IMG/VR virus record: IMGVR_UViG_2531839446_000026
Location: 1-29,517 of that record
Source: a virus
Lineage: Duplodnaviria; Heunggongvirae; Uroviricota; Caudoviricetes
Length of the DNA: 29,517 nucleotides
Strand: one strand, 5' to 3'
The notes under the pieces were generated by a model, which did no database searches, was not told the DNA's origin, and saw only the letters and a program-made list of their open reading frames with translations. Of this stretch, positions 7,879 through 8,366 are shown piece after piece. Each line of letters opens with the position of its first letter. Position 1 is the stretch's first letter. Position numbers and translations under genes: made by a program.

Positions 7879-8067
7879 ATGGCTGGAACGGCGGGGCGTT
7901 CCGGGCGTCGCCCCAAGCCAACGGCGCGCAAGGCGCTGGCCGGAAACCCCGGCAAGCGAGCCCTGAATAAAGATGAACCTGTTTTTACGCCCATTCAAAG
8001 GTGTTGTAGCCACCGGAGTGGTTCGCCGAAGAAGATCTCCCTCTCGCCACGATCATGTGGCAACTGA
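7879..8067 (+). CDS. Terminase small subunit (P27 family), N-terminal segment in frame A; gene apparently interrupted by a -1 frameshift
   Basis: AGGAG at 7866-7870, ATG at 7879. MAGTAGRSGRRPKPTARKALAGNPGKRALN is a typical P27-family TerS N-terminus; frame A then runs into non-homologous sequence and stops at 8065-8067. Confidence 0.7.
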   Translation: MAGTAGRSGRRPKPTARKALAGNPGKRALNKDEPVFTPIQRCCSHRSGSPKKISLSPRSCGN

Positions 8068-8366
8068 CAACCAAAGAACTCTGCGGTCAGGGCCTGCTGT
8101 GCGTGACTGACCTGGCGGTACTTGAGCGGTGGTGTGTGGCCTATGAATTCTGGCGACGTGCCGTGAAAAATATTGCCAGACAGGGCAACACCATCACCGG
8201 TGCAATGGGCGGCATGGTCAAAAATCCGGAGCTGACCGCCAAAAAAGAACAGGAGTCCGAGATGAGCAGCACGGGGGCAATGCTCGGACTCGACCCCAGC
8301 AGCCGCCAGCGTCTGATTGGCCTGGCGGGGAAGAAGAAAGCCACTAACCCGTTTCTGACAATCTGA
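8055..8366 (+). CDS. Terminase small subunit (P27 family), C-terminal segment in frame B
   Basis: Frame B is open from 8010 (PPEWF...) and carries the conserved TerS core ([14 protein letters not shown]...[10 protein letters not shown]). The ATG at 8055 is internal to the family alignment. Confidence 0.7.

Follow-up and report, generated by a model that had tools for sequence, protein, structure and literature searches.

Gene organisation of the packaging region

The window considered throughout this work is a stretch of 29,517 nt corresponding to ADUS01000054.1:1-29517, from E. coli RN587/1 (EPEC O157:H8). One of the loci compared, ADUS01000054.1:5055-11366 (GCA_000188875.2), is identical to window positions 5055-11366, and this identity establishes that the window is the opening 29,517 nt of the RN587/1 contig. 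The element is an SfV/SfII-like prophage with an ordinary P27-family terS gene, and the features of its packaging region, together with the sequence changes discussed below, are collected in Table 1.

Specifically, the order HNH-terS-terL-portal places terS at the position it occupies in HK97-type modules. The HNH gene is annotated in relatives as encoding a 116-aa HNH endonuclease, and enzymes of this kind are the usual partners of HK97-type terminases. The exact TerL protein was found on at least 1000 contigs. Downstream of the portal gene lie protease, capsid and Mu-like tail genes, each of full length, as are the remaining head, tail and lysis ORFs. SfV-type phages show the same terS-terL-portal order, near the left end of their deposited genomes, and the terS genes of SfV, SfII, SfIV and SfI share approximately 96-97% DNA identity with the window; Mu-like tail genes are also found in the relatives of the window prophage. 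Position 1 of the SfV and SfIV records corresponds to window position 7812, and SfI begins at approximately 7829; on the basis of these record starts, the interval between terS and the HNH gene listed in Table 1 is presumed to be the cos end region.

At its left edge, the contig starts inside an IS100 element of the IS21 family (window 1-1313, with the 3' end of istA followed by istB), which abuts the early region of the prophage at a truncated KilA-N-region gene. Homology to related prophages starts at 1305 and maps within the KilA-N-domain gene of these relatives.

Table 1. Features of the terS region and positions of the private sequence changes in the window
Feature	Position	Strand	Remarks
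T9 homopolymer (relatives T8)	4786..4794	.	comparison with complete-genome relatives
HNH endonuclease gene	7403..7753	+	Pfam HNH PF01844, E=3e-16; just upstream of terS
Start region of linear SfV/SfIV/SfI genome records	7812..7830	.	presumed cos end region
Shine-Dalgarno AGGAG	7866..7870	+	8 nt upstream of terS ATG, read from sequence
terS segment 1, frame A	7879..7994	+	codons 1-38 and first two bases of codon 39
Extra T no. 1, CCCAT[T]CAAA	7995 (equally 7994)	+	private; alignment to relatives
terS segment 2, third frame	7996..8006	+	last base of codon 39, codons 40-42, first base of codon 43
Codons 40-42 (KGV)	7997-8005		third frame
Extra T no. 2, GTTG[T]AGCC	8007	+	private; alignment to relatives
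terS segment 3, frame B	8008..8366	+	rest of codon 43 to codon 161 and TGA
T to C, GCT to GCC (Ala, synonymous)	8027	+	private; alignment
TGA closing the out-of-frame read-through of frame A	8065..8067	+	
terL, intact, 577 aa	8380..10113	+	Pfam TerL_ATPase and TerL_nuclease
Portal gene	10307-11548		

The deposited terS gene is distributed over three reading frames

The split of terS (7879-8366) reported in the original prediction is truly present in the record: the start of the gene and its conserved core lie in different frames. Re-reading and translation of the region returned the two frames as they had been described. Frame A runs for 63 codons from ATG 7879 to TGA 8065-8067 and translates to MAGTAGRSGRRPKPTARKALAGNPGKRALNKDEPVFTPI, followed by 24 unrelated residues; residues 1-39 agree with intact TerS. 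In frame B, codons start one base ahead of the frame-A codons; a TAG at 8007-8009 closes this frame, which is open from 8010, encodes the PPEWF... core and ends at TGA 8364-8366, the two frames overlapping by 55 nt (8010-8064). The earliest start codon in open frame B is ATG 8055, which gives a 103-aa ORF; on reading the sequence, no Shine-Dalgarno motif was found before this codon. The description in terms of two frames and their stops was thus accurate as far as it went, but it had missed the third frame, which carries codons 40-42. As deposited, terS is spread over three frames and does not form the single ORF of about 160 aa that characterises the P27 family.

The lesion was mapped by aligning the window to three complete-genome E. 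coli copies. Over 621 nt aligned to NZ_AP022098.1, the two sequences are identical but for three changes located within 34 nt (618/621), namely two extra T's and one substitution. Many complete genomes differ from the window over these 621 nt by the same three changes alone. The extra T's are 12 nt apart, and the insertion at 8007 itself makes the TAG stop that closes frame B. Their net effect of +2 is equivalent to a -1 shift; however, as they are two +1 insertions and not one deletion, the gene is found in three frames rather than two. The deposited sequence with both extra T's reads CCCATTCAAAGGTGTTGTAGCC, while the version without them reads CCCATCAAAGGTGTTGAGCC. A 1-nt deletion around 8008-8016 had been put forward as the most likely cause, to be verified by alignment to intact P27-family terS genes; this alignment instead positions the indel at 7995 and 8007, as two T insertions further upstream. 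Three random sites would fall within 34 of 621 nt with P ~0.008, and this clustering points to one local cause. A templated or quasi-palindrome complex mutation was ruled out, as no direct or inverted repeat was found to span the altered bases (7994-8027).

Deletion of T7995 and T8007 restores a single ORF of 161 codons. Its product is 100% identical to WP_000929174.1, a widespread intact protein of E. coli prophages (e.g. NZ_AP022098.1) whose gene differs from the window only at 7995, 8007 and 8027, and shares 160 of 161 residues with orf1 of the Shigella flexneri phage SfV (AAL89411.1). The repaired TerS scores 76.2 bits with TIGR01558 (cut-off 45.6) and 76.4 bits with PF05119 Terminase_4 (cut-off 24.7), values which confirm the proposed assignment to the P27 family. 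The 103-aa frame-B ORF alone reaches 75.6 and 76.7 bits, respectively, and the Terminase_4/TIGR01558 domain (residues 45-157) lies wholly downstream of the lesion and wholly inside this ORF. In addition, the repaired gene shows none of the further decay expected of a pseudogene, such as non-synonymous changes or more indels. A search for solved structures related to TerS returned no PDB relative at E <= 1.

At the 3' end of the gene, an 8-nt indel polymorphism at 8354-8361 (TCTGACAA, a near-repeat of the following TCTGAAAA) sets the 161-aa terS alleles apart from the commoner 164-aa alleles. A 13-nt spacer precedes terL in the 161-aa alleles, and terS and terL overlap by 4 nt in the 164-aa alleles. 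The SfV-type terS is a single ORF of 164 aa, whereas the window carries the 161-aa variant with the 8 extra nt at its 3' end; the two private T insertions are found in the window and not in SfV-type terS.

Search for the lesion in other terS copies

A megablast search against 5,426 complete E. coli genomes identified 1,136 records with terS, and the matches listed among them are all annotated as 'phage terminase small subunit P27 family'. The best identity to the window among the 1,136 records was at most 99.5%; as no record exceeds this value, neither insertion is present in any of the closest copies. A 35-mer and a 25-mer covering both insertions had no match in species-representative genomes, metagenome contigs and viral contigs, and k-mers carrying a single insertion (a 24-mer in the case of the first) gave 0 matches each in viral contigs, the one collection searched with them. 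By comparison, the intact 23-mer used as a control had matches in at least 120 viral contigs. On these searches, the idea that the lesion is an allele in natural circulation was rejected, the insertion k-mers being unmatched in the collections searched. The substitution is equally private: at the Ala codon 8025-8027, 131 related copies have GCT (114) or GCA (17), and 0 have GCC.

A full-length terS ORF (161-164 aa) is present in 114 of the 124 related loci with a readable ORF length. Nine other contigs carry the exact 161-aa ORF that neighbours terS in the window, and terS is intact (164 or 167 aa) in 9/9; among the nine is a complete genome that matches the window at 99.0% identity across 7.5 kb. 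In a collection of 15 billion proteins, no frame-A polypeptide is present. Other contigs with the same 103-aa ORF were considered as possible carriers of the lesion and discarded, for they show different lesions or cuts at contig ends.

At four loci from independent assemblies, the GC-rich 5' third of terS is disrupted by other frameshifts. One type of lesion there removes 10 nt between GGGCGT repeats, and the other a single C from a CCCC or CCC run; each type differs from the lesion of the window.

All together, the split arrangement was observed in none of more than 1,200 homologous copies examined. This result bears directly on the reading in which the insertions are real and the arrangement is functional, that is, a naturally split or recoded small terminase. 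Recoding across 7995-8064 would yield a low level of full-length TerS by an unconventional mechanism; in a two-polypeptide version, a 39-residue basic N-terminal arm would act with a 103-aa oligomerisation core started at ATG 8055. The 55-nt overlap of frames A and B and the location of the domain wholly in the 103-aa ORF are compatible with such an organisation, but two distinct +1 events would be required to recover the native sequence, the conserved KGVEPPEW segment would be replaced if only one -1 shift occurred, and ATG 8055 has no Shine-Dalgarno. Moreover, scanning of 7960-8067 for an XXXYYYZ slippery heptamer returned none, in agreement with what had been noticed initially. A programmed frameshift was rejected on the lack of this heptamer, together with the fact that the two-frame arrangement is not conserved in homologues. 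The programmed -1 frameshift of the tail assembly chaperone genes G/GT resembles the present case in having overlapping frames in a phage structural-module gene, but differs in that the window shows neither a slippery heptamer nor conservation and involves three frames instead of two. With the arrangement in 0 of the homologous copies examined, a functional split is effectively refuted by non-conservation, and we regard it as extremely improbable.

A second private indel splits an NA37-type gene

The window was also compared with five related complete-genome prophages, which jointly cover about 25 kb of it. Beyond terS, the only uncompensated window-private indel in the region compared is a T8 to T9 change (Table 1), which splits a gene for an NA37-type nucleoid-associated protein into two ORFs on the minus strand (4073-4744 and 4767-5228). 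The six complete genomes that carry this gene all have T8 and an intact 376-aa NA37-type gene (6/6). All three private indels are therefore an extra T, and each of them breaks an otherwise conserved ORF. The T9 run is probably a second 454 homopolymer artefact.

Origin of the terS lesion

RN587/1 was sequenced only by 454 Titanium with 8-kb paired ends and assembled with Celera as a draft (PMC3715677); the platform is indel-prone, and the sequence was not polished by another technology. Insertions are the commonest error class of 454 Titanium, rising toward read ends (PMC3116506), and carry-forward errors add a single base close to a run of that base but not directly next to it (PMC3764156).

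As the record is a 454-only draft and the lesion is absent from all other copies searched, the consensus is likely wrong, and we infer that the terS split is, with good probability, an artefact of 454 pyrosequencing assembly or consensus and not a property of the DNA. This explanation is supported by the complete identity of the repaired protein to WP_000929174.1 with no other decay, and by the nearby T8 to T9 change in a gene that is intact in six relatives. The lesion is private, belongs to an error class typical of the platform and has a similar lesion nearby. A sequence error had in fact been mentioned in the original prediction, though as an option beside the favoured deletion; it is this option that the evidence best supports.

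If the split arose in this way, T7995 would be an overcall of T to TT (1 to 2), T8007 an insertion of the carry-forward type, with the T one base after TT (GTTG[T]AG), and the T to C change at 8027 probably one miscalled base. The errors would have arisen in a locally poorly supported stretch, where very low or poor coverage is assumed, and terS in the real genome would be one 161-codon ORF. The private indels resemble 454 indel artefacts in that all are single-base insertions of one base type (T8 to T9, T to TT, and T one base past TT). They differ in that only one of the three is in a long homopolymer; at the other two, a wrong consensus would imply low local read support. This difference counts against an artefact, as 454 consensus errors concentrate in long homopolymers. 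In addition, the substitution at 8027 would take two flow errors to explain unless it is a real SNP, and the presence of IS100 at the left edge of the prophage makes some real decay plausible.

In the main rival explanation, the insertions are real and terS is a strain-private pseudogene, produced by one complex mutational event or by successive hits once the first frameshift had removed selection. IS100 abutting the truncated KilA-N-region gene makes such decay plausible, other assemblies do contain frameshifted terS alleles, each with a lesion of its own, and privacy to one strain is also expected of a recent mutation. On the other hand, the three changes cluster improbably tightly in an otherwise identical 621 nt, neither +1 insertion compensates for the other, and no direct or inverted repeat is available to template a complex event. 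Every other ORF for head, tail and lysis functions has its full length, the repaired protein carries no further sign of decay, and the 454 platform is known for this exact error class (PMC3715677, PMC3764156, PMC3116506). On balance, we consider a genuine pseudogene unlikely.

Were terS a pseudogene, the prophage could still cause lysis and assemble its heads and tails, but could not recognise and package its DNA. The earlier suggestion that the prophage may be unable to package DNA is nevertheless unsupported by the present analysis, given a lesion that is private to a 454-only draft and fits pyrosequencing error patterns; as this lesion is probably an artefact, no conclusion on packaging competence is drawn. 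More generally, neither a packaging defect nor recoding should be concluded from a frameshifted terS in a 454-only draft. A real lesion would make terS an ordinary strain-private pseudogene of the prophage, with a bearing only on the production of infectious particles by the SfV-like prophage of EPEC O157:H8 RN587/1.

Accessory genes of the prophage

The Q antiterminator and the holin are separated by two reverse-oriented cargo genes (2833-5228, minus strand): one encodes a 406-aa hypothetical protein with no Pfam hit, and the other is the NA37-like gene. Strain EC052 has caspase-family and TIR-domain genes in this slot, which suggests that the interval between the Q antiterminator and the holin is a hot spot for variable cargo or defence genes. 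A PADLOC scan of the neighbouring unannotated genes gave no hits.

An ORF of 161/162 aa (6868-7356), with no significant Pfam match, separates the lysis cassette from the HNH gene. The contig collection lists the exact protein in 218 index blocks, and at this position relatives have an S1 peptidase or other genes.

The right end of the prophage is e14-like (24740-28453), with tail-fibre and tail-fibre-assembly genes in opposed orientations. They adjoin a pinE-type recombinase gene (26914-27513), which is followed by mcrA (27620-28453). The opposed tail-fibre genes, together with the pinE-type recombinase, imply an invertible host-range segment.
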